This document shows, piece by piece, positions 1 to 14,777 of a stretch of DNA of 43,991 nt (position 1 is the stretch's first letter; each line of letters begins with the position of its first letter). The position numbers and the translations under genes are program-made. The stretch is from Nitrospirota bacterium (GTDB lineage: Bacteria; Nitrospirota; Thermodesulfovibrionia; UBA6902), in NCBI GenBank assembly GCA_011040095.1, contig DRDE01000314.1, positions 1 through 43,991 of the forward strand, read 5' to 3'. A model generated the notes under the pieces. That model worked only from the letters and a program-made list of their open reading frames with translations. It searched no databases and was not told the origin of the DNA.

Positions 1-2480
1 ATAATATGATCCTCTGTATCTATACCTTCAAATGTCAATTTGTATACAGCCCAGAATCCGCTTTTACCGAGGTAAGGCTCGATTTGAGAAACTTTATGCC
101 CGCCCTTTGTATAACATAATGTAATAGAATGAATACGTTCTGATGATTCGGTCTTTAAGTTGTTTATAATATCTTTCACCATTGGATGTCTGAGATGCAA
201 TCTCTCGGCGTCAATATCTTTATTGTGCCTGCCGACATAATAATATCCGCGGCTCATACTCTCTTTGCCCGAAATGCTGAATGATCCGGGCGCTGGATCA
301 ATCTTTAAGAGATAGCAGGCATTTGACAATTTGTATTCAGTCGGGCATAAGCTGCTTATTATTAATTTTGCAAGCATTATGTCCAAAGCACTCAAATCCT
401 GCTTTATTTTATTGTCAATTACTTTGAATCTTGCCCTGACCTCATCATCAAAGTTTTCAAGAAGCTTGGACCTTGTTTCTATTATTTTTTTATTGATCTG
501 TTCCGCAAGCTCTGCCTGGAGTTTATCGAATGCCTTATTGATTTCATCATCTGTGCGGCAGGACTGATATATGTCAAGAATGCGTTTCTCGAAATCAACG
601 CCCGAGCCTATAGAGCCAAGTATTTCATCCGAAGCGCCAAACAAGCCGCTGAAAAGTCTGAACTTCTGGTCAAGGAGTTCATATACCCTGCAGTCAGCGG
701 CAATTTTCCTGTTCAGGAAATTAAGAGCAATCACATCATATTTCTGCCCGTACCTATGGCATCGTCCTACTCTCTGCTCTATTCGCTGCGGGTTCCAGGG
801 GAGATCAAAATTTATAACAAGGTTGCAGAACTGAAGGTTAATGCCTTCTGCCCCGGCTTCAGTGGTAAGGAATATCCTGGTATGACGGTGAAATTCATGA
901 ATTAATGCGTCTCTGATCGCGACCGCCCTTGATATGTATCCTCCTGTTTCATGATGCGGTCTTTCTTTCACCCATCTGTCATAAGCCCTTTTGGCTGTTA
1001 CACCATTATTTGAGCCGTTAAAGACTGTTATCAACTCCTTATATCCATTGTCGGAAAGCAGATTGAAAAGATACTCCTGCGTCCTCCTTGACTCTGTAAA
1101 TATGACCGCTTTCTCATGCCATCCCATTTTCCTGCAGTGGGCAAAAGCCTTGTCCAGAGCAATAAGCAGTGCATCCCCCTTTGATGTCTTCTGAATGGAT
1201 TCGGCAAGGTTCCGCATATGAATCAATTCGCTTTTTTCAGCCTCCAGCTCTTCCTCTGTGAAAAATCTCCCGTTTGCGTTTTCAGTGTCTATATCTCCAG
1301 TTTCTACAGGTTCTGTATCCTCTCTTTTGGCGATTTCTTCGGATTCTTCTTCATAGCCGTCAACATCATCAAGCAATTCACTTATCTGAATGGTTTTTTG
1401 ATCGGATAACAACTTGTTAATATTGTTAATCAGCCCGTTAAGCGTTTTTGCAATCGCAAAACTTGAACTCGCAAGGATTTTCCAAAAAACCAATATTAAA
1501 AGGTGACGATATTTCGAGTTTATAGCTGCAACATCGGGCCTTCTCAAATACTCTGAAACAAGTTCATAAAGCTCGGCTTCATCATCAGTCGGCGTAAAAT
1601 CCTCTACCATTGACAAACGGTTTGTGTAGCGGACATATTCCTGAACCTGCCGCCTGAGAGTCCGCACCGCAATACCCGATATCCGTTCTTTTAAAGTCTC
1701 CTCATTTACAGACTCACGCCCGTTGTTGTCTGCCAGAAACATCTTTCTGAACGAATATTCAGAGCCAAAGGTCTTGTCTTCAATAAAACTCACCAGTCCA
1801 TACAGTTCCATCAGGGAATTTTGCAGCGGAGTTGCTGTCAGGAGAAGCTTGGGAATTCCGGCGAATAACTTTTTAAGCGTCCTGGCCTGCTTGCTGCCGG
1901 ACTTTTTATAAACATTCCTCAGGCGGTGCGCCTCATCTATTACCACCAGGTCCCATTTACCCACTGCCGCAATTTCAGCGCTTTTTGAATAAGCAAAGGG
2001 GATGGAAACAATAACGACTGCATTTCTTTTAAAGGGGTTTGTTTTTCCGTTTTTTTTAGACGCCCGATATTCGAATCCGTCAACTATAACACCCGGCACG
2101 TCAAACTTTTCGCGCAGCTCATTTTGCCACTGCTGACGTATGGGCGCCGGTACTACAGCGATAATCTTTCGTTTACCTTCCGCCCATAACTGGCTGATCA
2201 CCAGTCCCGCTTCAATAGTCTTTCCAAGGCCGACTTCATCGCAGAGTATTGCCCCGCGCGACATCGGAGATTTAAAGGCAAAGAGCGCCGCATCTACCTG
2301 ATGGGGATTCAGGTCAACCATTGCTGCTGAAAGAGGGGATTCCAGTTTCTTCAGATCATGCGCTGCCCGTTTGAGTGTGAGTTCATGGGCGGTTATGATT
2401 TGGTGGAAAAGGGGGAGTATCTTGAAATTATCACAATAATCGTCAAGTCCTTGGCGTGTACTGCCTGATGATTTCTTCAT
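1..2480 (-). CDS. SNF2-family (RapA/Rad54-like) helicase/ATPase, N-terminal >826 codons; ORF runs off the left edge of the window
   Basis: Absent from the ORF track because there is no stop inside the window. My own translation from the ATG at 2478-2480 stays open to position 1 (MKKSSGSTRQGLDDY...). Helicase motifs: I CDEVGLGKTIEAG, II VVIDEAHRLRN, III LLLTATPLQNSLMELY, V TTEAGAEGINLQ, VI DLPWNPQRIEQRVGRCHRYGQ. The short + strand ORFs at 331-1911 are its shadows. Confidence 0.85.
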   Translation of the reverse strand, partial: MKKSSGSTRQGLDDYCDNFKILPLFHQIITAHELTLKRAAHDLKKLESPLSAAMVDLNPHQVDAALFAFKSPMSRGAILCDEVGLGKTIEAGLVISQLWAEGKRKIIAVVPAPIRQQWQNELREKFDVPGVIVDGFEYRASKKNGKTNPFKRNAVVIVSIPFAYSKSAEIAAVGKWDLVVIDEAHRLRNVYKKSGSKQARTLKKLFAGIPKLLLTATPLQNSLMELYGLVSFIEDKTFGSEYSFRKMFLADNNGRESVNEETLKERISGIAVRTLRRQVQEYVRYTNRLSMVEDFTPTDDEAELYELVSEYLRRPDVAAINSKYRHLLILVFWKILASSSFAIAKTLNGLINNINKLLSDQKTIQISELLDDVDGYEEESEEIAKREDTEPVETGDIDTENANGRFFTEEELEAEKSELIHMRNLAESIQKTSKGDALLIALDKAFAHCRKMGWHEKAVIFTESRRTQEYLFNLLSDNGYKELITVFNGSNNGVTAKRAYDRWVKERPHHETGGYISRAVAIRDALIHEFHRHTRIFLTTEAGAEGINLQFCNLVINFDLPWNPQRIEQRVGRCHRYGQKYDVIALNFLNRKIAADCRVYELLDQKFRLFSGLFGASDEILGSIGSGVDFEKRILDIYQSCRTDDEINKAFDKLQAELAEQINKKIIETRSKLLENFDDEVRARFKVIDNKIKQDLSALDIMLAKLIISSLCPTEYKLSNACYLLKIDPAPGSFSISGKESMSRGYYYVGRHNKDIDAERLHLRHPMVKDIINNLKTESSERIHSITLCYTKGGHKVSQIEPYLGKSGFWAVYKLTFEGIDTEDHI

Positions 2481-2487
2481 GAGATAT

Positions 2488-4083
2488 TCACGCCCCGCTT
2501 TTTAGGTGATAGTTCTGTTTCATTATTAATATTTTTTCAAATAAATCCATGCACTTTTTATAGAGAAAAGAGTCTGTTGGGGTTATGCCTGTATCTGCTT
2601 GTAATTTATCCAAAGTTTCCTTCTGGGAATGACTTTCAATATTTTTCATTATTTCTGCTAAACCGATTCCGGCATATAGATACGGCTGGAGTTCTTCCAA
2701 CTCGTCTATAGATAAGATAATCCATGATGGGGAATTAATGTTATGCGTGTTATTAAGCAATTTATTTACATGCTTCTCAAACAAGAAAGAGTTTATGAGG
2801 TAAAACGACCCAAAAGAAACGAAAACAGATATGACTTTTGAACAATCATGAAATTCTTCAAGCCCTTTTGCCTTTGTAAGAATTGCATTTCTAAATTCAT
2901 GAAGTCCAACCAGCCCTTTTATAACCTGTTTTAAACTATTATTAATATCCTCTTCTGAGGCAGTTGTTAGAGCAACCCTTGAAAACTTTGTTGCCTTTAC
3001 TTGAAAAATAATGGCCGTATCCCCTTCGACTACAACCCAGTCAGGTAGTTTCCCTTTTTTGTATTTTCTCTTAATCATATCTTCAGAGTATATCTTGCAT
3101 CTATTTATTGAGTTTTCAAGAATTATCCCCACATACTCTTCAAATATAAGTCCGAACCATTGTGAAAACTCTTCTAAATAATTATTGAACATTTGATAAT
3201 AAATACCCGTTGATATTCTGTAGCATATAAGATTGGGAATGGGTGCAGTTAATCTGTCAGAATCCATTCCTAACAAGGGGCTGTCTTTCCATGGCCTTAT
3301 TATAGGATAGGAAAATAAAGGATTAAAATCGTATGCTCTGAATCGTCTGTCTCTGTTTTTGCGGTTTTCAAAAACTCCTCGGAACTGTGTAGGTGTGGCC
3401 GAAACATTATTTAAAATAGTTACGGTAGTGTCGTCATCAGGAAGTTTTAGCCCTTGTTGTCGGGCGACTTCAAAATAGCCTCTTGCAAATCCTGCTTTGC
3501 TTTGTGCGGCAGACCAGGCAACCAGTCCAATCGACAAAAAATCTTCAAGTGTTGCTCCGGTTATCTTTTGAAATTCAAAATGAAAATCAAACGCTGGGAC
3601 ATCTTTCCTTTTTTCAGCCCTTTTTATTGCTTCACCATAGAGAATCAGGGTTTGAGAGTAAGAAGCATAGGGATTGACGTTGTAGGAAAACTGGCTTGCT
3701 GAATGTCTCAGAGAAAGGAAGATCGGATTTTCTTCTTTGAATTTTTCAGCGAGTTCTTTATCAAAAGTAATTGGATCAGCTAACAGATAGTTTGTAACCA
3801 GCATTTCAAGCTGGGACAATGCATACAAGTCAAAGACCTTTCCATTTCTGTGAGGATTTGTAAAGCGAACAGCAAAAGAGGCGATACCAGCAGCAGTAAA
3901 AAATGGCAGACCCTTCGGAAGAAAGCGGTGGATATCAGAATTTGGATTTTCTAATTCTTTCAGTGCATTATTTACAGATATAAGAATATCATTTGATTTA
4001 AATTTTCTTATCTCATGTTTTATCCTGCTCTCAAGTTTATCTATATTTAGAGAGCCATTGCTATTAAAAAAAGTTTTATCCAA
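2488..4083 (-). CDS. Hypothetical 531-aa protein with a putative PD-(D/E)xK-like nuclease core (E...D...QxK)
   Basis: Long intact ORF. Its stop is 7 nt before the SNF2 start, and its start overlaps the PIN gene stop by 8 nt. Core pattern: FGLIFEEYVGIIL (helix with E), KLPDWVVVEG (D at a strand start), AIIFQVKATKF (QxK). The function is inferred from this pattern only. Confidence 0.6.
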   Translation of the reverse strand: MDKTFFNSNGSLNIDKLESRIKHEIRKFKSNDILISVNNALKELENPNSDIHRFLPKGLPFFTAAGIASFAVRFTNPHRNGKVFDLYALSQLEMLVTNYLLADPITFDKELAEKFKEENPIFLSLRHSASQFSYNVNPYASYSQTLILYGEAIKRAEKRKDVPAFDFHFEFQKITGATLEDFLSIGLVAWSAAQSKAGFARGYFEVARQQGLKLPDDDTTVTILNNVSATPTQFRGVFENRKNRDRRFRAYDFNPLFSYPIIRPWKDSPLLGMDSDRLTAPIPNLICYRISTGIYYQMFNNYLEEFSQWFGLIFEEYVGIILENSINRCKIYSEDMIKRKYKKGKLPDWVVVEGDTAIIFQVKATKFSRVALTTASEEDINNSLKQVIKGLVGLHEFRNAILTKAKGLEEFHDCSKVISVFVSFGSFYLINSFLFEKHVNKLLNNTHNINSPSWIILSIDELEELQPYLYAGIGLAEIMKNIESHSQKETLDKLQADTGITPTDSFLYKKCMDLFEKILIMKQNYHLKSGA

Positions 4084-4573
4084 TTTTTTTCAATCTCTTT
4101 AGAAACTCAATCAGAATTTCTTCTCTTATTCGATATCCCTTTTGCATTAAATCGAGTGATAATAATTCCGTAGTTTCCCGGTCAATCATACCGGACTTAA
4201 AAGAATCCCATAATATACCGAGAGTCCCCTTTGTTTTTAATCCCCTGAATCTGGCGACAGTCCTTGCTTTTGCTTCATCTATTAGAACTATGCCGATCTT
4301 ATTTCTGACAGCAAGACTTATAACAGCTCTTTCACCGGAGCCGAGAAAGTGCGGCAGGTTTTTTAAAAGAGGAGTTTTCACAGCCTCTATTTTTCTGCTA
4401 TCAAGATAGTGTATTATCTGTTGTGCATCTTCTTTTCGGAGCTTGAGACCTCTTGCAATTTCTGCTTCTACCTGTGATGGAACATAAAGTTTGAAATTAT
4501 CAAGAAGTTCGAGCCTGTTTATCTTTCCGAGAAATATCAGAGGGGAAGCATTGCAAACCACCCTATCAGGCAT
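4076..4573 (-). CDS. PIN-like DUF3368-family toxin, partner of the UPF0175 antitoxin
   Basis: The track ORF is 4076-4654. The likely true start is the internal ATG at 4571-4573 (MPDRVVCNASPLIFLGKINRLELL...), which overlaps the upstream stop as TAATG. Family-typical segments: NASPLIFL, GSGERAVISLA, VLIDEAKAR, KGTLGIL. Confidence 0.75.
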   Translation of the reverse strand: MPDRVVCNASPLIFLGKINRLELLDNFKLYVPSQVEAEIARGLKLRKEDAQQIIHYLDSRKIEAVKTPLLKNLPHFLGSGERAVISLAVRNKIGIVLIDEAKARTVARFRGLKTKGTLGILWDSFKSGMIDRETTELLSLDLMQKGYRIREEILIEFLKRLKKIG

Positions 4574-4854
4574 TATCTTATATCCTCTGCAAGCTCTTCC
4601 ATTGAATAGTCTATATGTATGTCCGCTTTCTTTATTTTCTCTATCATCTCCCATATGTCTATTGAAAGCATTCCAGCGGCTTTCTGAAGGGTTATCTTCC
4701 GGCTTCTGTAAAGTTGAAGGACATTTTTTTCATTTAAAACGAGAAGTCCCTGTTTTAACGCCTTTGGTATGATGTCCTGGACTTTTACACCATATGTTTT
4801 AGAGACTCGTTCAGCTTCTTTGTATAAATTTTCTTTTAGTTTTACAGACTTCAT
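4573..4854 (-). CDS. UPF0175-family antitoxin
   Basis: 93-aa ORF. The C-terminal LQLYRSRKITLQKAAGMLSIDIWEMIEKIKKADIHIDYSMEELAEDI matches the usual UPF0175 pattern (LY..g.iSlgkAAe....s..ef...l.k.gi......eel.eDl). It is coupled to the DUF3368 gene. Confidence 0.75.
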   Translation of the reverse strand: MKSVKLKENLYKEAERVSKTYGVKVQDIIPKALKQGLLVLNEKNVLQLYRSRKITLQKAAGMLSIDIWEMIEKIKKADIHIDYSMEELAEDIR

Positions 4855-4866
4855 TTTATCCCTCCA

Positions 4867-5118
4867 TTAATTGAGCTTCTTCTCGAAGCCAATCATTTCG
4901 TTTTCAGGCACTGCGTTTATTACATAGCCGCATTCTGAAAGATAATCATCAAGTGTCCCCATTTCTTTCATCTCGGCAAACTGTATTTTTACCACCTCAT
5001 CAAGGTTGGCTTTTGCCTCTTCAATAGTCCGCCCCTGAGCAATAAAATCCAGTTCAGGGATTTTGGCTATACACCATTCCCCTTTCTGCCATAACTCAAT
5101 CGTTGATTGTAATTTCAT
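4867..5118 (-). CDS. HicB-like (UPF0150) antitoxin-fold protein, with no adjacent HicA
   Basis: 83 aa. ELWQKGEWCIAKIPELDFIAQGRTIEEAKANLDEVVKIQFAEM fits the HicB N-terminal fold pattern (..g.w.A.vPel.g..tqG.TleEA..nl.eai). Confidence 0.65.
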   Translation of the reverse strand: MKLQSTIELWQKGEWCIAKIPELDFIAQGRTIEEAKANLDEVVKIQFAEMKEMGTLDDYLSECGYVINAVPENEMIGFEKKLN

Positions 5119-5181
5119 TTAAACCTCCCGACAGTTTTCCATTATGGCCGTTATCAAGCGCTTATTAATTATATCAAAGAG

Positions 5182-8100
5182 TTATGAATCTATCATTTCT
5201 CCGTTTTCGTTGTTGTCTAAATCACTTTGGACGAATGTATCCTTATATTTTTCAAAACCTGTACCCGCAGGGATTAACCGCCCCATAATGACATTTTCTT
5301 TTAATCCCTTCAGGTGATCAACATCTCCTTCAATAGCCGCCTCTGTTAATATCCTGGTTGTCTCTTGAAATGACGCTGCTGATATCCAGCTATTTGCTGA
5401 CAAAGCTGCTTTAGTGATTCCAAGCAACACTGGCTGACCAACTGCCTCTTTTCCACCATCTAATGAAACAACGACATTTTCTTCGAGAAATTTACGTCTT
5501 TCTGTAATTTCTCCCATCAGAAACATAGTGTCGCCTGGAGCTGTGATCTTTATTTTTTCAGTCATTTTTCTGATGATAATTTCAAAATGCTTATCATTAA
5601 TTTTGATATTATTCGCTTTATACGTTTTTTGAAGTTCGTTCAGGAGAAATAAATGAACTTCTCTTCCCCCTTTATCGTTAAGTATTTTATGTGGGTCTAT
5701 CAAAGTTTTGTCTTTCGGCCTTCTTGCCTCAAAAAGTTCGATAATTCTGAATAAATCAATGACGGGCATTTCATCTTCTGTCTCACATCTGCCTGATCTG
5801 CGGCTGTTCAAAACAAACTGTGTTCCGGGTTCTCCTATTGACTGGGCTGCCAGGATTCCGACAGCCGTGCCTGTTTCAACTGTCCTGCCGGTTGATAAGT
5901 CCCGACCATAACATCTTGCGCATACGCCGTTTTCGGAAAGGCATGTAAGAACAGACCTTGCTCTCACCTTTTTAATGCCGGCATCGGTTATTCGTCTGGC
6001 AACGCTATTAGTAATTTCTTCGTTTAATCCCAGTATAACTTCCCCTGTTTCAGGATTCCGTATCTCCTCGGCCGATATGCGTCCTGTTATTCTGTCATCA
6101 AGCTTATGAATAATTTTTTTATTTACAACTATTTCATCTAATGTAATTCCGTCTCCTGTGGCGCAGTCTTCTTTTTGAATAATAGTGTCCTGTACCACAT
6201 CTATAAGCCTTCTTGTTAACCATCCGGCATTTGCAGTCATCATCTCTGTATCAATAATACTGTTTCTCGCTCCGGTAGATAACATAAAATATTGAACAGG
6301 TGAAAGACCTTCCTTAAAATTTGCCGTAATAGGATACTCCATAAACTTTTCCGAAGGCTTCACTATATGTCCCGGCACCATTCCGGCAAGCCTTATTAAC
6401 AGGGCAGCAGAGTTTTTTGCGCCTGAGTTGATCATCATATGAATGTTGTTCCCTTTGTCCTTCTTAAGTTCTGTCACTATTTCATTGTTTATAATTCCGG
6501 CAGCTTTTTGCCAAGTCTCTGTAACAGCATCTCTTCGCTCTTCAGTGGAAATGGTTTCATCATCTTCACTTTCATTTGCATTTATGAACCCGTATACATG
6601 CTTCTGGGCATCTTCAACTACCGCCTGTTTACATGAGGGTACACGTATATCATCCATGCTTATAGATATGCCCGATCTTGTGGCATACTCAAATCCGATC
6701 CTCATGAGACGGTCAAGGACTTCGGCTGTGTCCTGTCTGCCGAAATCGTTATGCAGGAGCATCACAATTTCTTCAAGACAGTTTTGTGTCACTGTCCGGT
6801 TTACTTTTTCAAAAGGGAACCCGCATGGGAATATATCATACAAAATGACCTTGCCTGCGGTAGTATCATGAAGACTCTCCTGTATTCTAACTTTTATCTT
6901 TGAGTGCTCATTTATAAATCCTGAATCATAAGCGTGTCTTACTTCATCGGCGCTGGAAAATACGGATGGGCAGGTCTCAGCGTCAGGCATATCAGCCGTT
7001 AAATAATAGATACCGAGAAGCATGTCCTGTGTCGGCATTGCGGCAGGTTTGCCGTTTGCAGGGTTTAAAATAGTGTTAACAGACATCATCAGCGCCCTTG
7101 CCTCTACCTGCGCCTCTATTGATAAAGGAACATGGACAGCCATCTGGTCACCGTCAAAGTCAGCATTGAATCCCTTGCATACAAGCGGGTGCAGCTTTAT
7201 CGCCTTACCCTCAACAAGTACCGGGTCAAATGCCTGCATTCCGAGACAGTGAAGAGTCGGCATTCTGTTAAGAAGCACAGGATGTTCCCTGATGACTTCA
7301 TCAAGGCAGTCCCAAATGATATCCTCTCCACGTTCAACGACTTTCTTGGCAGCTTTGATCGTGGTGACAAATCCTTTTTCTTCAAGTTTGCTGAATATGT
7401 AAGGTTTAAACATTTCAATGGCCATTTTCTTCGGCAATCCACACTGATGAAGCCGTAGTGCCGGGTCCGGCACGATGACGGACCTGCCGGAGTAGTCAAC
7501 TCTTTTACCGAGAAGGTTCTGCCTGAAGCGGCCCTCTTTACCCTTTATCATGTCGCTTAAGGACTTAAGCGGCCTCTTGGTTACTGCCTTTAGTACACGG
7601 CTCCTCCTCCCGTTGTCAAAGAGTGCGTCAACAGCTTCCTGGAGCATCCTTTTTTCATTTCTGATAATGACACTGGGGGCATTCAGTGCCATCAGTCTTT
7701 TCAAGCTGATATTTCTATTTATAACCCGTCTATAAAGATCGTTTAAATCTGAAGTGGCAAACCGTCCGCCTTCAAGCGGTACCAACGGTCGAAGGTCAGG
7801 TGGCAACACGGGAATAACGTCCATAACCATCCACTCCGGTCTGTTCCCTGATCGTCTGAATGCCTCCACAACTTTTAATCTCTTTGCAAGTTTTTCTTTC
7901 GTGGTTTTGGCATTTGTCTGTCGTATCTTTGCTCTAATGTCTTTTGCCAGAGTATCAAGGTTAATCTTTTGCAGGAGTACTTTTACCGCTTCAGCGCCAA
8001 TACCTGCCTTGAATTTATCGCCGAACTCCTGGACCCTTTTTCTGTATTCCTCACCTGTCAGAAGTTCTTTTTCTTTTAACTTTGTTTCACCGGGGTCAAC

Positions 8101-8538
8101 GACTATATAACTTTCAAAGTAAAGCACCGTTTCAAGCTGGCGCATGGTCATGTCAAGCAGTGTACCGATAATATTTTGACGACCTTTCCAGTACCATATA
8201 TGGGCAACAGGTGTGCACAGCTCTATGTGACCGAGCCTTTCACGTCTTGCCTTTGCCTGTATGACCTCAACCCCGCATTTGTCACAGACAACCCCCCTGT
8301 GTTTCATTCTCTTATATTTGCCGCATATGCATTCCCAGTCTTTGACAGGACCAAATATTTTTGCACAGAAGAGCCCATCACGTTCAGGCTTGAAAGTTCT
8401 ATAGTTTATGGTTTCCGGATTTTTTACTTCTCCATAAGACCATTCCCTTATTTTTTCAGGAGAGGCGAGGCTTATCTTAACCGCATTAAATGTCGTTAGA
8501 TTTTTGGGCTTTTCAAATATTGAGTAGATATCTTCCAT
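5182..8538 (-). CDS. rpoC: RNA polymerase beta-prime subunit paralog: orphan (no rpoB adjacent) and divergent in the trigger loop, F-loop, bridge helix and jaw
   Basis: 1118-aa ORF. N-terminus FNAVKISLASPEKIREWSYGEVKNPETINYRTFKPERDGLFCAKIFGP; Zn ribbon CICGKYKRMKHRGVVCDKCGVEV; catalytic NADFDGDQMAVHVPLS; C-terminal FQETTRILTEAAIEG...KENVIMGRLIPAGTG. Divergences are listed in the findings. Confidence 0.9.
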   Translation of the reverse strand: MEDIYSIFEKPKNLTTFNAVKISLASPEKIREWSYGEVKNPETINYRTFKPERDGLFCAKIFGPVKDWECICGKYKRMKHRGVVCDKCGVEVIQAKARRERLGHIELCTPVAHIWYWKGRQNIIGTLLDMTMRQLETVLYFESYIVVDPGETKLKEKELLTGEEYRKRVQEFGDKFKAGIGAEAVKVLLQKINLDTLAKDIRAKIRQTNAKTTKEKLAKRLKVVEAFRRSGNRPEWMVMDVIPVLPPDLRPLVPLEGGRFATSDLNDLYRRVINRNISLKRLMALNAPSVIIRNEKRMLQEAVDALFDNGRRSRVLKAVTKRPLKSLSDMIKGKEGRFRQNLLGKRVDYSGRSVIVPDPALRLHQCGLPKKMAIEMFKPYIFSKLEEKGFVTTIKAAKKVVERGEDIIWDCLDEVIREHPVLLNRMPTLHCLGMQAFDPVLVEGKAIKLHPLVCKGFNADFDGDQMAVHVPLSIEAQVEARALMMSVNTILNPANGKPAAMPTQDMLLGIYYLTADMPDAETCPSVFSSADEVRHAYDSGFINEHSKIKVRIQESLHDTTAGKVILYDIFPCGFPFEKVNRTVTQNCLEEIVMLLHNDFGRQDTAEVLDRLMRIGFEYATRSGISISMDDIRVPSCKQAVVEDAQKHVYGFINANESEDDETISTEERRDAVTETWQKAAGIINNEIVTELKKDKGNNIHMMINSGAKNSAALLIRLAGMVPGHIVKPSEKFMEYPITANFKEGLSPVQYFMLSTGARNSIIDTEMMTANAGWLTRRLIDVVQDTIIQKEDCATGDGITLDEIVVNKKIIHKLDDRITGRISAEEIRNPETGEVILGLNEEITNSVARRITDAGIKKVRARSVLTCLSENGVCARCYGRDLSTGRTVETGTAVGILAAQSIGEPGTQFVLNSRRSGRCETEDEMPVIDLFRIIELFEARRPKDKTLIDPHKILNDKGGREVHLFLLNELQKTYKANNIKINDKHFEIIIRKMTEKIKITAPGDTMFLMGEITERRKFLEENVVVSLDGGKEAVGQPVLLGITKAALSANSWISAASFQETTRILTEAAIEGDVDHLKGLKENVIMGRLIPAGTGFEKYKDTFVQSDLDNNENGEMIDS

Positions 8539-8705
8539 TAATCATCCCCTTATTTGCAAGTATCCAGATTTTAACATAAAGAAGGTAATAGAAAGGAAGA
8601 AAAAGCTTTACATCCAGAGTTCCAATTTGCCTTGATTGTGTAACATATTGTATGTTTTCTTGAAGAGTACATAACAAGACTAAAGATATTTGGATTGCAA
8701 AACTT

Positions 8706-10331
8706 ATGAAGATCAACAATGCAAAAGACATTCATAAATATGTTGAGGCCCTTATTAACAACATGCCTTTGTTTAAAATGCCAAGATATGAAGCATTACT
8801 CCACGTCCTGCGAACGATGGAGGCGCTTTTTACACGTGGAAGTATATCTGAACGCTCGGAAGCAAATCTTATTATGGCTAACAGGGCTTTCCAGGATATA
8901 CTTCGTTATATGGTTTATTGGACTTACAGTATATGTCCTGAAGGAGGCAAGATTTTGTCAACGCCAGCTAACTGTAAAGAGATGATTAAAGAAACAATCG
9001 AGATTGCAGAAAGTTACAGTAAAGTTTTTGACTTTATAAAAGCGGAAGAAATGGGAGATGTGTCATTTAATATTAATAAGCACTCCAAAATTATAGGAAT
9101 TGAGTACTTGAATGAAGAAGCGGGTAGATCGTTTGGTCTTCATGAATTTTTTAAGGGGAAAGAGTTAGGTAATCAATCTAAAAATTTCTTTGGCAATGAA
9201 TCCGGAAACATGGAAAATATGTTAAAAGCTAAGGAAGAAATCGAAAAATCTATTAAAATCAAGAATAAGAAAGAATTCATTTATTCGCGAAGTAAGTTTG
9301 TTTTTAAGACATTTGAGGAATTATCTGAAAATATTATTTCACAGATGTTTTTGATGCCTGAAGGATGGTCATTGGGGTTTTATACAATTGGCAATTTTAA
9401 ACTTTTCTGGAAGCATCTCTTGAAAATCGCAATAATTCATCAAGTAGCCTTCATAAGTTATGTAGAGAAAATGATTAAAGGTAATAAAAACATATCATAT
9501 GATAATGCTGTACGCTGCGACAATAAAAAAGATTTAGTTAATCATATTCATATGTATTCCGGGCTGGAGAAAAAAGTTATTAATAACATCATACAAGACT
9601 TGATTTATGATAATGCAGTGAAATGGACTGATATCATGTTTCAGCCGCTTTTTCAAATTGAAAATAAAATTATTTTTTCTCCAAACGTAATTGTTGGGAG
9701 TAGAGCAGAGAGAAATATTAATGTCTTAATGAGTAAAATTAATCCAACAGCATATAATGATCTAACATCTAATAAAGAAGATGGGATGATTTCTGAATTC
9801 AGTAACACTTTGAGAGAGAACAGATATTTTTTCGAACCAAGAGTAAAACTAAAAGAGGATGATAAAGTTATTACAGACATAGATATTCTTGTGTGGGACG
9901 AGAAAAAAGAAAACATCTTATTAATGCAATTAAAGTGGCTTTATGGTGCTGATGCGACTCAGGAAATTTACAATCAAGATAAAGAATTTGCAGCAGGAAT
10001 TGCTCAAGTAAAAAAGTCTGTGAATTTTATTAAGAGAAATTCTTCATATCTATCAAGATTTGGACTACGCCCTAATAACGTTTTCGGTATTGTTATTAGT
10101 AAGCTTGGTCTTCCAAGCCCTTTTCTAAATAAAGAAAATGTCATATTGGTTGAATCCGAGCAAATAATAGAAAATCTTAAGGCTGTTCCCGGCAATATAA
10201 AAAAACTATATACCTTCCTCGAACAATCTTCATTACCCAAAAAGGAAATAGCTGAATGCACATTGAATGTTAAGGAAAAAATAATCGGTCAATACACTTT
10301 CCGATTACCTGTTGTTTCATGCAAGGTTTGA
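8706..10331 (+). CDS. Hypothetical 541-aa protein with a putative PD-(D/E)xK-like nuclease core; distant paralog of the 531-aa protein
   Basis: Long intact, very AT-rich ORF divergent from the rpoC paralog. Core pattern: GMISEFSNTL (E), VITDIDILVWD (D), ILLMQLKWLYG (QxK). It shares FxPLF and post-core motifs with ORF 2488-4083. Confidence 0.6.
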   Translation: MKINNAKDIHKYVEALINNMPLFKMPRYEALLHVLRTMEALFTRGSISERSEANLIMANRAFQDILRYMVYWTYSICPEGGKILSTPANCKEMIKETIEIAESYSKVFDFIKAEEMGDVSFNINKHSKIIGIEYLNEEAGRSFGLHEFFKGKELGNQSKNFFGNESGNMENMLKAKEEIEKSIKIKNKKEFIYSRSKFVFKTFEELSENIISQMFLMPEGWSLGFYTIGNFKLFWKHLLKIAIIHQVAFISYVEKMIKGNKNISYDNAVRCDNKKDLVNHIHMYSGLEKKVINNIIQDLIYDNAVKWTDIMFQPLFQIENKIIFSPNVIVGSRAERNINVLMSKINPTAYNDLTSNKEDGMISEFSNTLRENRYFFEPRVKLKEDDKVITDIDILVWDEKKENILLMQLKWLYGADATQEIYNQDKEFAAGIAQVKKSVNFIKRNSSYLSRFGLRPNNVFGIVISKLGLPSPFLNKENVILVESEQIIENLKAVPGNIKKLYTFLEQSSLPKKEIAECTLNVKEKIIGQYTFRLPVVSCKV

Positions 10332-10637: not shown

Positions 10638-10905
10638 TTACGCAACCTGAACCAATTTCTTCTCGAACCCGATCATTTCGTTTTCAGGCACTGCGGTATC
10701 GTCTTTAATTACATAACCGCATTCTGAAAGATAATCATCAAGTCCCCATCTCTTTCATCTCGGCAAACTGTATCTTTACCACCTCATTAAGATTAGCTTT
10801 TGCCTCATCAATAGTCCGCCCCTGAGCAACAAAATCCAGTTCCGGAATTTTGGCTATGCACCATTTCCCCTTTTGCCATAACTCAATAGTTGCCTGTAAT
10901 TTCAT
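10638..10905 (-). pseudogene. Frameshifted second copy of the HicB-like gene
   Basis: Nucleotide-level copy of 4867-5118. It has a 2-nt deletion (catcaag--tcccca versus catcaagtgtcccca) that creates ...AEMKEMGT-stop, and a 9-nt in-frame insertion near the 3' end. Confidence 0.7.
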
Positions 10906-10981
10906 TATAAGCCTCCTTAAATTTATATATTCTGATTATACAAAAATTATCGAGCGCGTCACTCTTTCTTTTTGCCATACA

Positions 10982-11348
10982 CTATACGATATCCTCTGAA
11001 AGGTCTTCCATTGAATAGTCTATATGTATATCAGCTTTCTTTATTGCGTAGCCCGGGTTTAATACCCCGCCCCTTGGGGCGTTCATTGCTTTTAAAGATA
11101 CCCCGTCCGCTTGCGGCGGGGTAGTTCATTTTATCTATCATCTCCCATATGTCTATCGAAAGCATTTCAGCGGCTTTTTGAAGGGTTATCTTCCGGCTTC
11201 TGTAAAGTTGAAGGACATTTTTTTCATTTAAAACGAGAAGTCCCTGTTTTAACGCCTTTGGTATGATGTCCTGGACTTTTACACCATATGTTTTAGAGAC
11301 TCGTTCAGCTTCTTTGTATAAATTTTCTTTTAGTTTTACAGACTTCAT
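10982..11348 (-). pseudogene. Second copy of the UPF0175 antitoxin gene, interrupted by an 85-bp palindromic element; no PIN partner
   Basis: The first 60 codons are identical to 4573-4854 and only 2 of the first 73 differ. The track ORF 11031-11348 reads through into the insert. After the insert the original frame resumes (KKADIHIDYSMEDLSEDIV-stop at 10982-10984). Confidence 0.75.
11046..11130. repeat. REP/MITE-like insertion made of two GC-rich hairpin units
   Basis: Present in copy 2 of the UPF0175 gene and absent from copy 1 at the homologous point (ctttatt|ttctctatcatc). Units: ataccccgccccttggggcgttcatt and ataccccgtccgcttgcggcggggtagttcatt. Confidence 0.65.
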
Positions 11349-11431
11349 TTTATCCCTCCCGATGGAATAAAAGATGAGGTTTTAGGAGAAGAGAGAGGGA
11401 GTTCAGATAGGCGCTTATCCGATTAGCTTTT

Positions 11432-11707
11432 TTATACTACTTTAACTTTTAATTGTCTTCCAAGGGCTTGAGCAAATTTCTCTAATGTTGATAGACGAAT
11501 ATCTTCAGAGTGATTTTCAATTCTGGAAATTGCAGACTTCTTTGTACGCAGTTTTTTTGCTAATTCTTCTTGTGTGATTCCTGCCTTTTCTCTTGCCATC
11601 TTAAGGGTCACTCCTATTTTAAAATCTTGATATCCAGCTTCAAAATCCTTTGTAAATTTCCGGCTTTTCTTTTTCCGTTTACTTATGTATTTTTCAAGAT
11701 CATCCAT
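11432..11707 (-). CDS. XRE-family HTH antitoxin (HigA-like), partner of the Gp49/RelE-type toxin
   Basis: 91 aa. MAREKAGITQEELAKKLRTKKSAISRIENHSEDIRLSTLEKFAQALG is a classic Cro/C1-type HTH. Confidence 0.8.
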   Translation of the reverse strand: MDDLEKYISKRKKKSRKFTKDFEAGYQDFKIGVTLKMAREKAGITQEELAKKLRTKKSAISRIENHSEDIRLSTLEKFAQALGRQLKVKVV

Positions 11708-11754
11708 TATTTTTCCTCCTGTTTATATAATCACGCTTTCGTATTTCCGCAAGC

Positions 11755-12057
11755 TCAATTTCTTTTTTTTGGTGTTTTCCGAGACTTCTTTTGAAATCCA
11801 TGTGTTAGAATAATTAAATTAGCCCCATCATTAAAACCGAGAAACCTGTAGATATTATTTCCAACCTGCACTCTAACCTCCCAAATGCCATCTGTATTAA
11901 TCAGTTTCTTAAAATATGACCTTGGAACATCATCAAAATCTCTTATTATTCGTAACACCCATGCAACTTTTTTTACTATTTTGTCAGGCAAAGTATCCAG
12001 GAAATTTTCAACAGGACACTTGCCGGATACCGTTTTATAAAATACAATTTTACGCAT
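11755..12057 (-). CDS. Gp49-like (DUF891) RelE/HigB-superfamily toxin; C-terminus apparently truncated by a frameshift in an A8 run
   Basis: [43 protein letters not shown] fits the family pattern (lwElR......yRil.f.....ivllhgF.KKtqktPkk). With one fewer A, the -1 frame continues as [20 protein letters not shown] and ends in an ATGGATGA overlap with the antitoxin start. Confidence 0.75.
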
Positions 12058-12061
12058 TTAT

Positions 12062-12091
12062 AATGTTAACACTAATGTGAACATTTATCAA
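12062..12091 (-). promoter_or_regulatory. Possible promoter/operator of the Gp49-XRE cassette
   Basis: On the minus strand: TTGATA (12091-12086), a 17-nt spacer, TAACAT (12068-12063), then ATG 5 nt later. No SD is visible, so the mRNA may be leaderless. An inverted repeat aatgttaac-N6-gtgaacatt (12062-12085) overlaps the spacer and -10. Confidence 0.3.
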
Positions 12092-12126
12092 GGGAAAATA
12101 TTTTGAAAGATAAGGATATCTATTCG

Positions 12127-12285
12127 ATAATGGCCGTTATCAAGCGCTTATTAATTATATCAAAGAGTTATAAATCTATCATTTCTCCGTTTTCGTTGTT
12201 GTCTGAATCGCTTTGAACGAATGTATCCTTATATTTCTCAAAACCTGTACCCGCAGGGATCAACCGCATATGTCCCGGCACCATT
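12127..12285 (-). pseudogene. Deletion remnant of a second copy of the rpoC paralog (3' end plus downstream spacer)
   Basis: 12127-12267 is a near-identical copy (a few mismatches) of 5141-5281. It is followed directly by 18 nt (12268-12285) identical to 6365-6382. The junction is in frame: MVPGHM-RLIPAGTGFEKYKDTFVQSDSDNNENGEMIDL-stop. Confidence 0.8.
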
Positions 12286-13883: not shown

Positions 13884-13938
13884 AAATTTAATGCGGAGGG
13901 AAAAAACCAGAGAATGAAAGCCATTGCAAAAAAGATCC

Positions 13939-14055
13939 GTAACTATTCAGGCAGGCACAAAGGCACAAAGTGAAAAAAAGAATGAAAAAGTTTTCTTGTA
14001 TTTCTGTAACCCTTTGTGCCTATGTGCCTTTGCCACTTTGCACCTGAGTAGTTAC
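13939..14055. mobile_element. MITE family A, copy 1 (117 bp, 13-bp terminal inverted repeats)
   Basis: gtaactattcagg...cctgagtagttac. The interior is a long imperfect palindrome rich in ggcacaaag units. A reverse-oriented copy lies at 40792-40900. Confidence 0.8.
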
Positions 14056-14081
14056 AAAGATTCAGATAAAGAGGACCTGTT

Positions 14082-14777
14082 ATGAGAAAAGAAAAAGAGA
14101 AAAACATATATGTCTGGCCCGACCTGGCAATTATGGAATTCCTGACAGCCATAGCATTAACAATCATCCTCTTAGTATGGGCCCTGCTTATAAATGCCCC
14201 TTTATTAGAGATAGCCAACCCCGGGATCTCTGAAAATCCATCTAAGGCCCCGTGGTATTTTGTCGGCCTGCAGGAACTCCTGGTATATTTTGATCCGTGG
14301 ATAGCCGGGGTAATGATCCCGGCTATTATCATAGTATGCCTGATGATTATTCCATATATAGACAATAATCCTGCGGGCAGGGGGGAATACACTTTTTCCG
14401 CCAGAAAATTCGCCCTGATAAATTTCAATATAGGATTCTCAATGTGGCTCATCCTGATATTCACGGGATATTTTCTCAGGGGGCCGAACTGGCAGTTTTA
14501 CTGGCCGTGGGAGTCATGGGAAACCGCCAAACAGGTTGAAGAGAATCTATGGAGCCTTGATCCCGTGTACGGACTGGCGGGTCTGGCAGCTTATTTCGGG
14601 GCGGGCCTGGCAATACCGCGTTTGGCATGGCCCGGATTTTATAGCAAATGCGGTTTCAAAAGATATGTAATTGTGATGACTTCAATTCTTTTAATGTATG
14701 CCGTGCCGATAAAGATTTTTCTGAGACTGGTATTTAACATCAAATATATATTGGTGACTCCCTGGTTTAATATATAA
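14082..14777 (+). CDS. Cytochrome b C-terminal part / subunit IV-like protein
   Basis: SKAPWYFVGLQELL corresponds to the PEWY Qo-site motif region. Several predicted TM helices. It sits directly after the cytochrome b gene. Confidence 0.75.
   Translation: MRKEKEKNIYVWPDLAIMEFLTAIALTIILLVWALLINAPLLEIANPGISENPSKAPWYFVGLQELLVYFDPWIAGVMIPAIIIVCLMIIPYIDNNPAGRGEYTFSARKFALINFNIGFSMWLILIFTGYFLRGPNWQFYWPWESWETAKQVEENLWSLDPVYGLAGLAAYFGAGLAIPRLAWPGFYSKCGFKRYVIVMTSILLMYAVPIKIFLRLVFNIKYILVTPWFNI

Follow-up and report, generated by a model that had tools for sequence, protein, structure and literature searches.

A marine Nitrospirota bacterium with an orphan RNA polymerase β' paralogue on a strain-variable defence island

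Prokaryotic defence islands recruit enzymes from housekeeping pathways; one housekeeping protein associated with RNA polymerase (RNAP) is the core SWI2/SNF2 ATPase RapA. To our knowledge, no described defence hotspot has a paralogue of the RNAP β' subunit as a stable element. Here we describe a 43,991-nt window (the whole stretch of DNA analysed), which is contig C314 (DRDE01000314.1) of an uncultured Nitrospirota bacterium's metagenome-assembled genome (MAG; GCA_011040095.1, here G000; 354 contigs, 2.76 Mb, 78.8% complete) and is present in public runs of marine and marine-sediment metagenomes. At one end, the window carries a second copy of rpoC, the gene for β', among toxin–antitoxin (TA) and defence-type genes.

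The closest described systems are GAPS1, class 1 DISARM and an engineered form of Escherichia coli β'. GAPS1, a protein of GMT islands, is a validated single-protein anti-phage system that contains a PD-(D/E)xK domain with D313 and K328 required for activity, is triggered by the T7 capsid protein Gp10 and causes dormancy (Hör et al., 10.1101/2023.03.28.534373). In class 1 DISARM, the helicase DrmD works with DrmA, DrmB, DrmC and DrmMI (class 1 DISARM paper). Deletion of the jaw of E. coli β' (Δ1149-1190) leads to resistance to T7 Gp2, destabilised open complexes, less pausing and intrinsic termination, and faster elongation (PMC3778932). Like this mutant, the β' paralogue of the window appears to lack the jaw segment, here naturally; unlike it, the paralogue is also without the SI3 insert, its trigger loop is rewritten and its centre divergent, and it is a natural second subunit gene on a mobile island rather than a laboratory mutant of the housekeeping gene.

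The locus as a whole resembles known defence-island hotspots in its several independent TA and defence modules, its variability between strains, its low GC content at third codon positions (GC3) and its edge repeats; it differs in that the stable element is an RNAP β' paralogue. We read it as a movable, strain-variable defence island anchored by the paralogue, which is most likely an RNAP subunit that can still assemble but has altered catalysis, and possibly a dominant-negative effector, a reading to which, taken whole, we give roughly even chances. The locus would then be a defence island of known kind with, possibly, one new component. In the literature we found no RNAP-subunit paralogue or decoy in anti-phage defence, and no β' paralogue described on a defence island.

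Anatomy of the β' paralogue

The initial annotation, made from the window alone, had described the gene as an orphan and catalytically eroded paralogue of rpoC. Its orphan status is confirmed: the canonical rpoC (1364-1371 aa) lies on another contig of the genome (C104), where it adjoins the only rpoB, with birA and coaX after it, and no rpoB occurs near the paralogue, which therefore lacks the rpoBC-operon context of RpoC. By family, the paralogue is a full β', with Pfam domains Rpb1 1-5 and an rpoC_TIGR score of 1468 bits (cutoff 963). Residues 1-500 are 80-92% identical to the housekeeping β' of its own and other genera, and residues 501-1000 are 31-57% identical. For this divergent half, the sole close relative among 5.8 billion proteins was a record of identical sequence, all other matches being housekeeping β' at 42-46% identity. 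Apparent paralogues in six related genomes (72-88% identity) turned out to be the N-termini of housekeeping rpoC, with only 31-57% identity across the central region.

Catalytic erosion was not found at the Mg-binding NADFDGD motif (458-464), which is intact, as are the two Cys motifs for Zn binding, at 85 and 873. It holds for other parts of the protein. Following QSIGEPGTQ, the trigger loop reads FVLNSRRSGR (908-917); LTMRTFHIGG is the sequence at this place in 117 of 119 homologues. None of the residues that correspond to E. coli M932, R933, F935 and H936 is kept, and the GLPRV motif of the trigger-loop C-helix is replaced by DLFRI. The segment that follows the trigger-loop C-helix, measured from FEAR to NDKH downstream, has 45 aa, against 100-119 aa in every one of the 91 homologues that could be measured, and comparison with solved β' chains placed the absence of a block of ~50-56 aa directly after the trigger loop. 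The absent segment probably corresponds to the jaw (equivalent to E. coli 1149-1213), which is the binding site of T7 Gp2. Also absent is the ~265-aa SI3-like insert of the genome's own housekeeping β'. The two features of RpoC in which the paralogue falls short are thus a canonical trigger loop and, in all probability, a jaw. The one β' match on a viral contig (IMG/VR UViG_3300045988_080285), considered as a second reshaped case, was rejected, as it has a canonical LTLRTFHVGG trigger loop and retains SI3. That contig starts with the canonical β', continues with an amidase and weak phage-scaffold matches, and probably represents either the junction of host and prophage or host DNA with a wrong label.

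A related genome of the same genus (G001) carries an orthologue of the paralogue, and comparison of the two copies gave ratios of nonsynonymous to synonymous substitution rates (dN/dS) of 0.12 in the N-terminal, 0.34 in the central and 0.21 in the C-terminal part, against 0.07-0.2 for core genes. Synonymous divergence (dS) was 0.30-0.37, equal to the core-gene baseline of 0.29-0.43. Judged by these rates, the paralogue is under purifying selection overall. The trigger loop is identical in the G001 copy, and its nucleotides match in the contig of the dominant marine strain; the loss of jaw and SI3 is common to the G000 and G001 paralogues, and the promoter region is 96.5% conserved in G001 by blastn.

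Possible roles of the paralogue

The half of the paralogue that contacts β, α and σ is conserved and under purifying selection, and for this reason we consider, with moderate confidence, that it assembles with host α2ββ'ω. RNAP containing it, without a jaw and with a rewritten trigger loop, might be slow or otherwise altered, a step of which we are less confident. Our leading guess is that the paralogue, when expressed, would compete with housekeeping β' as a dominant-negative 'poison' subunit, and that the resulting arrest of transcription during infection could act as an abortive-infection or dormancy effector, akin to the outcome of GAPS1. The narrower proposal, that defence islands carry the paralogue as a component dedicated to fighting phages, where it would act either as such a poison subunit or as part of an RNAP insensitive to phage inhibitors, is possible but doubtful. 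If true in either form, it would be the first case of prokaryotic immunity recruiting a paralogue of an RNAP subunit. A jawless β' with a rewritten trigger loop that joins host RNAP would offer a direct test of whether changing or poisoning the host's own transcription machinery is a means by which bacteria resist phages, and of how much change in trigger loop and jaw is compatible with assembly.

Several observations weigh against a role as an altered, possibly poisonous subunit. The central dN/dS of 0.34 indicates weaker constraint. In marine metagenome contigs, the ends of the paralogue match closely and the centre (window ~6216-7421) is uncovered at 90% identity in the dominant strains; the centre is thus hypervariable among marine strains, a pattern expected equally of an arms race and of relaxed selection or decay. 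The G001 orthologue (contig C47, locus L005, 8752-12104) is interrupted by an in-frame TAG (codon 537) and has lost 1 nt at codon 869: if these changes are real, the paralogue is dispensable there, and if they are MAG errors, they prove nothing. The paralogue was found in one genus only, a single lineage from which to judge its co-occurrence with defence genes. The dominant-negative mechanism is deduced from anatomy alone, and an active but inhibitor-insensitive alternative β' is possible. Among the public runs, no RNA dataset was listed with the paralogue sequence, a blank that counts neither way.

Much of this evidence would also be expected of a decaying hitchhiker, an old β' duplicate captured by a defence hotspot, with no defence role and in slow decay, in which the loss of jaw and SI3, the drift of the trigger loop and the fast centre all reflect relaxed constraint. 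The premature stop and frameshift in G001, the raised central dN/dS, the hypervariable centre and the restriction to one genus fit this explanation, as does a GC3 of 0.41, below the 0.53 of housekeeping rpoC. However, the G000 copy is an intact, full-length open reading frame (ORF) under purifying selection at the baseline dS of ~0.35, the reshaped trigger loop and the loss of jaw and SI3 are common to both genomes, the trigger loop recurs in the dominant marine strain, and the promoter region is conserved. We consider decay rather unlikely but a real possibility; even as a hitchhiker, the paralogue would clearly exemplify the carriage of a duplicated core gene alongside defence cargo.

An improbable alternative is that RNAP containing the paralogue is active and lacks the surfaces hit by phage or antibiotic inhibitors (jaw-binding Gp2-like proteins, secondary-channel binders), sustaining transcription, including that of defence genes, during infection. 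The missing jaw is in line with this idea, given that jaw deletion leads to Gp2 resistance in E. coli (PMC3778932), as are the altered trigger loop, the divergent centre, the conserved active-site motif and Zn sites, and the location on a defence island. Replacement of the M932, R933 and H936 equivalents together with the trigger-loop C-helix motif nevertheless predicts poor catalysis, and GC3 suggests modest expression. We also know of no Gp2-like protein in Nitrospirota phages, which counts against an inhibitor-insensitive enzyme.

A defence hotspot of independent modules

Six minus-strand genes fill positions 1-8538, and their order, coordinates, 63-nt and 12-nt gaps and overlaps are as the initial annotation gave them. 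Together with the adjoining part of the island, the window contains the following features.

1-2480, minus strand (ORF 3-2480): DrmD-like SNF2 helicase, 3' end beyond the window (Pfam SNF2/Helicase_C, PADLOC DrmD, NCBIfam DISARM_DrmD_b)
2488-4083, minus strand: putative GAPS1-family 531-aa protein, TTG start (NCBIfam antiphage_GapS1, E 4.4e-27, below cutoff; motif)
4076-4654, minus strand: DUF3368 PIN-like toxin (Pfam DUF3368, E 3.3e-4; PADLOC PDC-S70, E 3.6e-31)
4573-4854, minus strand: UPF0175, antitoxin partner of the PIN protein (Pfam UPF0175, E 1.3e-11; PADLOC PDC-S70)
4867-5118, minus strand: HicB-like antitoxin, 83 aa (G001 orthologue 88% identical and paired with HicA there)
5137-5281, minus strand: copy 1 of a 145-nt repeat, comprising the last 33 codons of the paralogue and 45 nt downstream (repeat search, promoter scan)
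5182-8538, minus strand: rpoC (β') paralogue, 1118 aa, ATG start (Pfam Rpb1_1-5; rpoC_TIGR)
8539-8705, no strand: upstream and promoter region of the paralogue, common to the divergent 541-aa gene (blastn, conserved in G001)
8706-10331, plus strand: 541-aa protein, family unassigned (leads from the structure/feature atlas only)
10657-10906, minus strand: partial HicB-like copy, cassette A (repeat search, tblastn)
11031-11348, minus strand: UPF0175 copy with its C-terminus recoded by a 91-nt palindromic element resembling repetitive extragenic palindromes (REP) (repeat and motif analysis, blastn)
11432-11707, minus strand: HigA/HipB-like helix-turn-helix (HTH) antitoxin (NCBIfam HipB/couple_hipB; PHROGs)
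11755-12057, minus strand: Gp49/DUF891 RelE/HigB-like toxin, forming a toxin-first pair with 11432-11707 (Pfam Gp49, E 6.9e-18)
12123-12267, minus strand: copy 2 of the 145-nt repeat, a partial paralogue 3' end at the island edge, beside the core Rieske/cytochrome bc operon (repeat search)

The SNF2 gene is completed on contig C335 (1-759, ~1004 aa in total), which shares a 225-bp exact overlap with its 3' end in the window. Beyond SNF2, this leftward extension holds a HigB toxin and a HigA antitoxin, a 120-aa ORF and then core genes (molybdopterin oxidoreductase, Rieske, cytochrome c, DsbD). The island therefore consists of C335 ~1-2045 and window 1-~12476, ~14.5 kb in all, between the molybdopterin-oxidoreductase and Rieske/cytochrome bc operons. 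In G001, the same two operons lie on one contig with ~129 nt between them, an empty site, and this adjacency indicates that the ~14.5 kb of the island were inserted. In G001, the paralogue is on another contig, flanked by MTase/IMPase/MoCF/HD genes and by DUF362/AAA_14-DUF4143 genes; movement of the island is inferred solely from these differing sites in two genomes. No integrase domain was found among the island ORFs (Pfam, PADLOC, PHROGs) and no att-like direct repeats at its junctions, so it does not qualify as an integrase-mobilised island.

The cargo varies between genomes and strains. Beside the G001 paralogue are UPF0175, HicB with HicA, an unrelated 478-aa protein and SNF2, with no PIN and no GAPS1 gene, and the 541-aa gene is absent from G001. 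Metagenome depth was ~3-16 for the GAPS1-family gene and ~0-13 for the 541-aa gene, against ~250-600 for SNF2, the paralogue and cassette A (10657-12267); the GAPS1-family and 541-aa genes are absent from the dominant marine strains. The 145-nt segment made up of the paralogue 3' end and the next 45 nt is duplicated at the Rieske-side island edge, ahead of cassette A, and contig joints in a sediment run (12176->5210 and 11360->12123) show that the two copies recombine, other rearrangements also being seen. GC3 of the island cargo is 0.22-0.31, compared with 0.45-0.53 for core genes. Between G000 and G001, the SNF2 gene has a dS of 0.09 against the baseline of ~0.35, and since the paralogue has 0.30-0.37, SNF2 was swapped between lineages far more recently than the paralogue; the conserved SNF2 3' end extends for 37 nt in both genomes, after which the flanks diverge. 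Because the cargo varies and SNF2 moved independently of the paralogue, the modules are not one system: the region is a hotspot of defence modules that are independent of one another, all of kinds that act alone in known systems.

This bears on the proposal of the initial annotation that the genes form a new integrated system in which a β' decoy or sensor for phage RNAP-binding proteins licenses the SNF2 helicase and a nuclease. The paralogue does lie co-directional and tightly packed with a nuclease-like gene (the GAPS1-family PD-(D/E)xK gene) and the SNF2 ATPase, whose weak RapA-like relation beside an RNAP-subunit paralogue is suggestive. The neighbours are, however, known kinds of part on a variable island. 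Between paralogue and SNF2, G001 has other cargo, SNF2 has been exchanged on its own, and the dominant marine strains keep SNF2 and the paralogue without the GAPS1-family and 541-aa genes. GAPS1 functions as one protein, each TA pair is complete in itself and the SNF2 protein is of the DrmD type; linkage is not conserved outside the genus, and a jawless β' would be missing the best-known binding site for a phage protein. We regard licensing of a helicase-nuclease by the paralogue as very improbable. A metagenomic misjoin or contaminant is hardly credible as the source of the paralogue or its island context, for even though G000 is a 354-contig MAG and the island spans two contigs joined by the 225-bp overlap, the paralogue-plus-TA arrangement is independently present in G001, the empty site of G001 is bordered by orthologues of core bc-operon genes that the window contig also bears, and marine metagenome contigs reproduce the paralogue with its neighbours.

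As the initial annotation had noted, no hairpin-plus-T-run terminator is found at the gene junctions in a promoter and terminator scan, in which promoter- and terminator-like sites were overall at chance level. A TG-extended -10-like element in the 3' end of the paralogue (5196-5168) makes an internal promoter for the downstream genes possible, and a second such element lies in the partial copy (12182-12154). The six genes may or may not be co-transcribed.

Cargo genes and minor features

The SNF2 protein has intact motifs (GLGKT at 84, DEAH box at 182) and matches DrmD in PADLOC at E 9.7e-196. Against NCBIfam DISARM_DrmD_b it scores 649-655 bits for a cutoff of 950, and it stays below this cutoff at full length, as does the complete 992-aa G001 orthologue. 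No DrmA, DrmB (DUF1998), DrmC (PLD) or DrmMI methylase was detected among the island ORFs by Pfam, PADLOC and NCBIfam. With these partner genes missing and the full-length score under the cutoff, we rejected SNF2 as part of a DISARM system: it shares the helicase core of class 1 DrmD (E 1.6e-196 / 9.3e-195) but has a distinct C-terminal accessory domain and stands without the DISARM partners. This SNF2 accessory domain occupies the C-terminal ~300 aa and has a faint RapA_C-like lead in the atlas, with no nuclease. The link to RapA/HepA drawn in the initial annotation is consequently weak. The protein matches the RapA model PRK04914 (166/161 bits) and its C-terminal domain is akin to RapA_C-like clusters, but the match is below the cutoff of 576 bits, placing it outside RapA, and it is far nearer to DrmD than to RapA. 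No SNF2 relative was found on viral contigs.

The 531-aa protein, previously noted as a nuclease-like protein with an E-D-QxK motif, matches NCBIfam antiphage_GapS1 at E 4.4e-27, with 95 bits against a cutoff of 320, and its motif corresponds to a PD-(D/E)xK-like site (P347-D348 ... E353/D355 ... Q361-x-K363). It resembles GAPS1 in being one protein whose putative phosphodiesterase-like site of PD-(D/E)xK type lies towards the C-terminus, at about the position of D313 and K328; unlike GAPS1 itself, it is a probable distant member with a variant QxK motif, from a marine Nitrospirota host rather than Vibrio or Klebsiella. The 541-aa protein has no Pfam, PADLOC or PHROG match, and neither it nor the 531-aa protein is matched in PHROGs. 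In the atlas, the 541-aa protein lies near NERD, Hjc and Upx-like clusters of PD-(D/E)xK type, a lead that makes it a candidate unrecognised defence protein, putatively a nuclease of the PD-(D/E)xK fold.

The TA-like genes next to the paralogue belong to known families, as first annotated. UPF0175 and the DUF3368 PIN gene are adjacent and form a known TA-like pair (PADLOC PDC-S70). The PIN gene has two candidate starts, an ATG at 4654 (193 aa, the longest ORF) and an in-frame M at 4573 that overlaps the UPF0175 stop (TAATG). No HicA lies beside the HicB-like antitoxin gene in G000, so there is no HicAB pair here; the G001 orthologue has an adjoining HicA. Two HigBA-type pairs in HigB-then-HigA order are present on the island, one on C335, outside the window (Pfam HigB, E 9.6e-21; TIGR02607 HigA, 110 bits), and the other the Gp49 and HTH pair at 11432-12057. 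The latter belongs to cassette A, which is composed of the Gp49/DUF891 RelE-type toxin, the HipB/HigA-like HTH antitoxin, the partial UPF0175 copy and the partial HicB copy. Elsewhere in G000, contig C70 (L012) has another defence- or TA-like cluster, containing a HicB 91% identical to that of the window, a PIN toxin, a Phd/YefM–ParE pair, a 1566-aa DUF6079 protein and a DDE-transposase fragment.

The 91-nt palindromic element in cassette A (11040-11131), resembling REP elements or miniature inverted-repeat transposable elements (MITEs), has six copies in the genome, 100% identical (the others on C58, C245, C209, C30 and C114), and was recently active; the cassette A copy supplies a terminator-like hairpin at 11099-11123. 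At the far edge of the island, on C335 (L011, ~1800-2050), a strong terminator-like palindrome follows HigA, before the molybdopterin-oxidoreductase operon. Past its island part, the window carries core genes for Rieske, cytochrome b, diheme cytochrome c, MCP, CheA, NAD synthase, HtrA, LarBC, GpsA, FolP and FtsH; the best-matching relatives of its cytochrome b are in Nitrospirota and Thermodesulfovibrionia. In this core region, after the cytochrome b gene (window ~13900-14100), lies a second repeat family with ~73 genome copies at 83-100% identity; depth in metagenome contigs exceeds 1000 at 13885-14418, and the repeat is probably an element of the REP or bacterial interspersed mosaic element (BIME) type outside the island.

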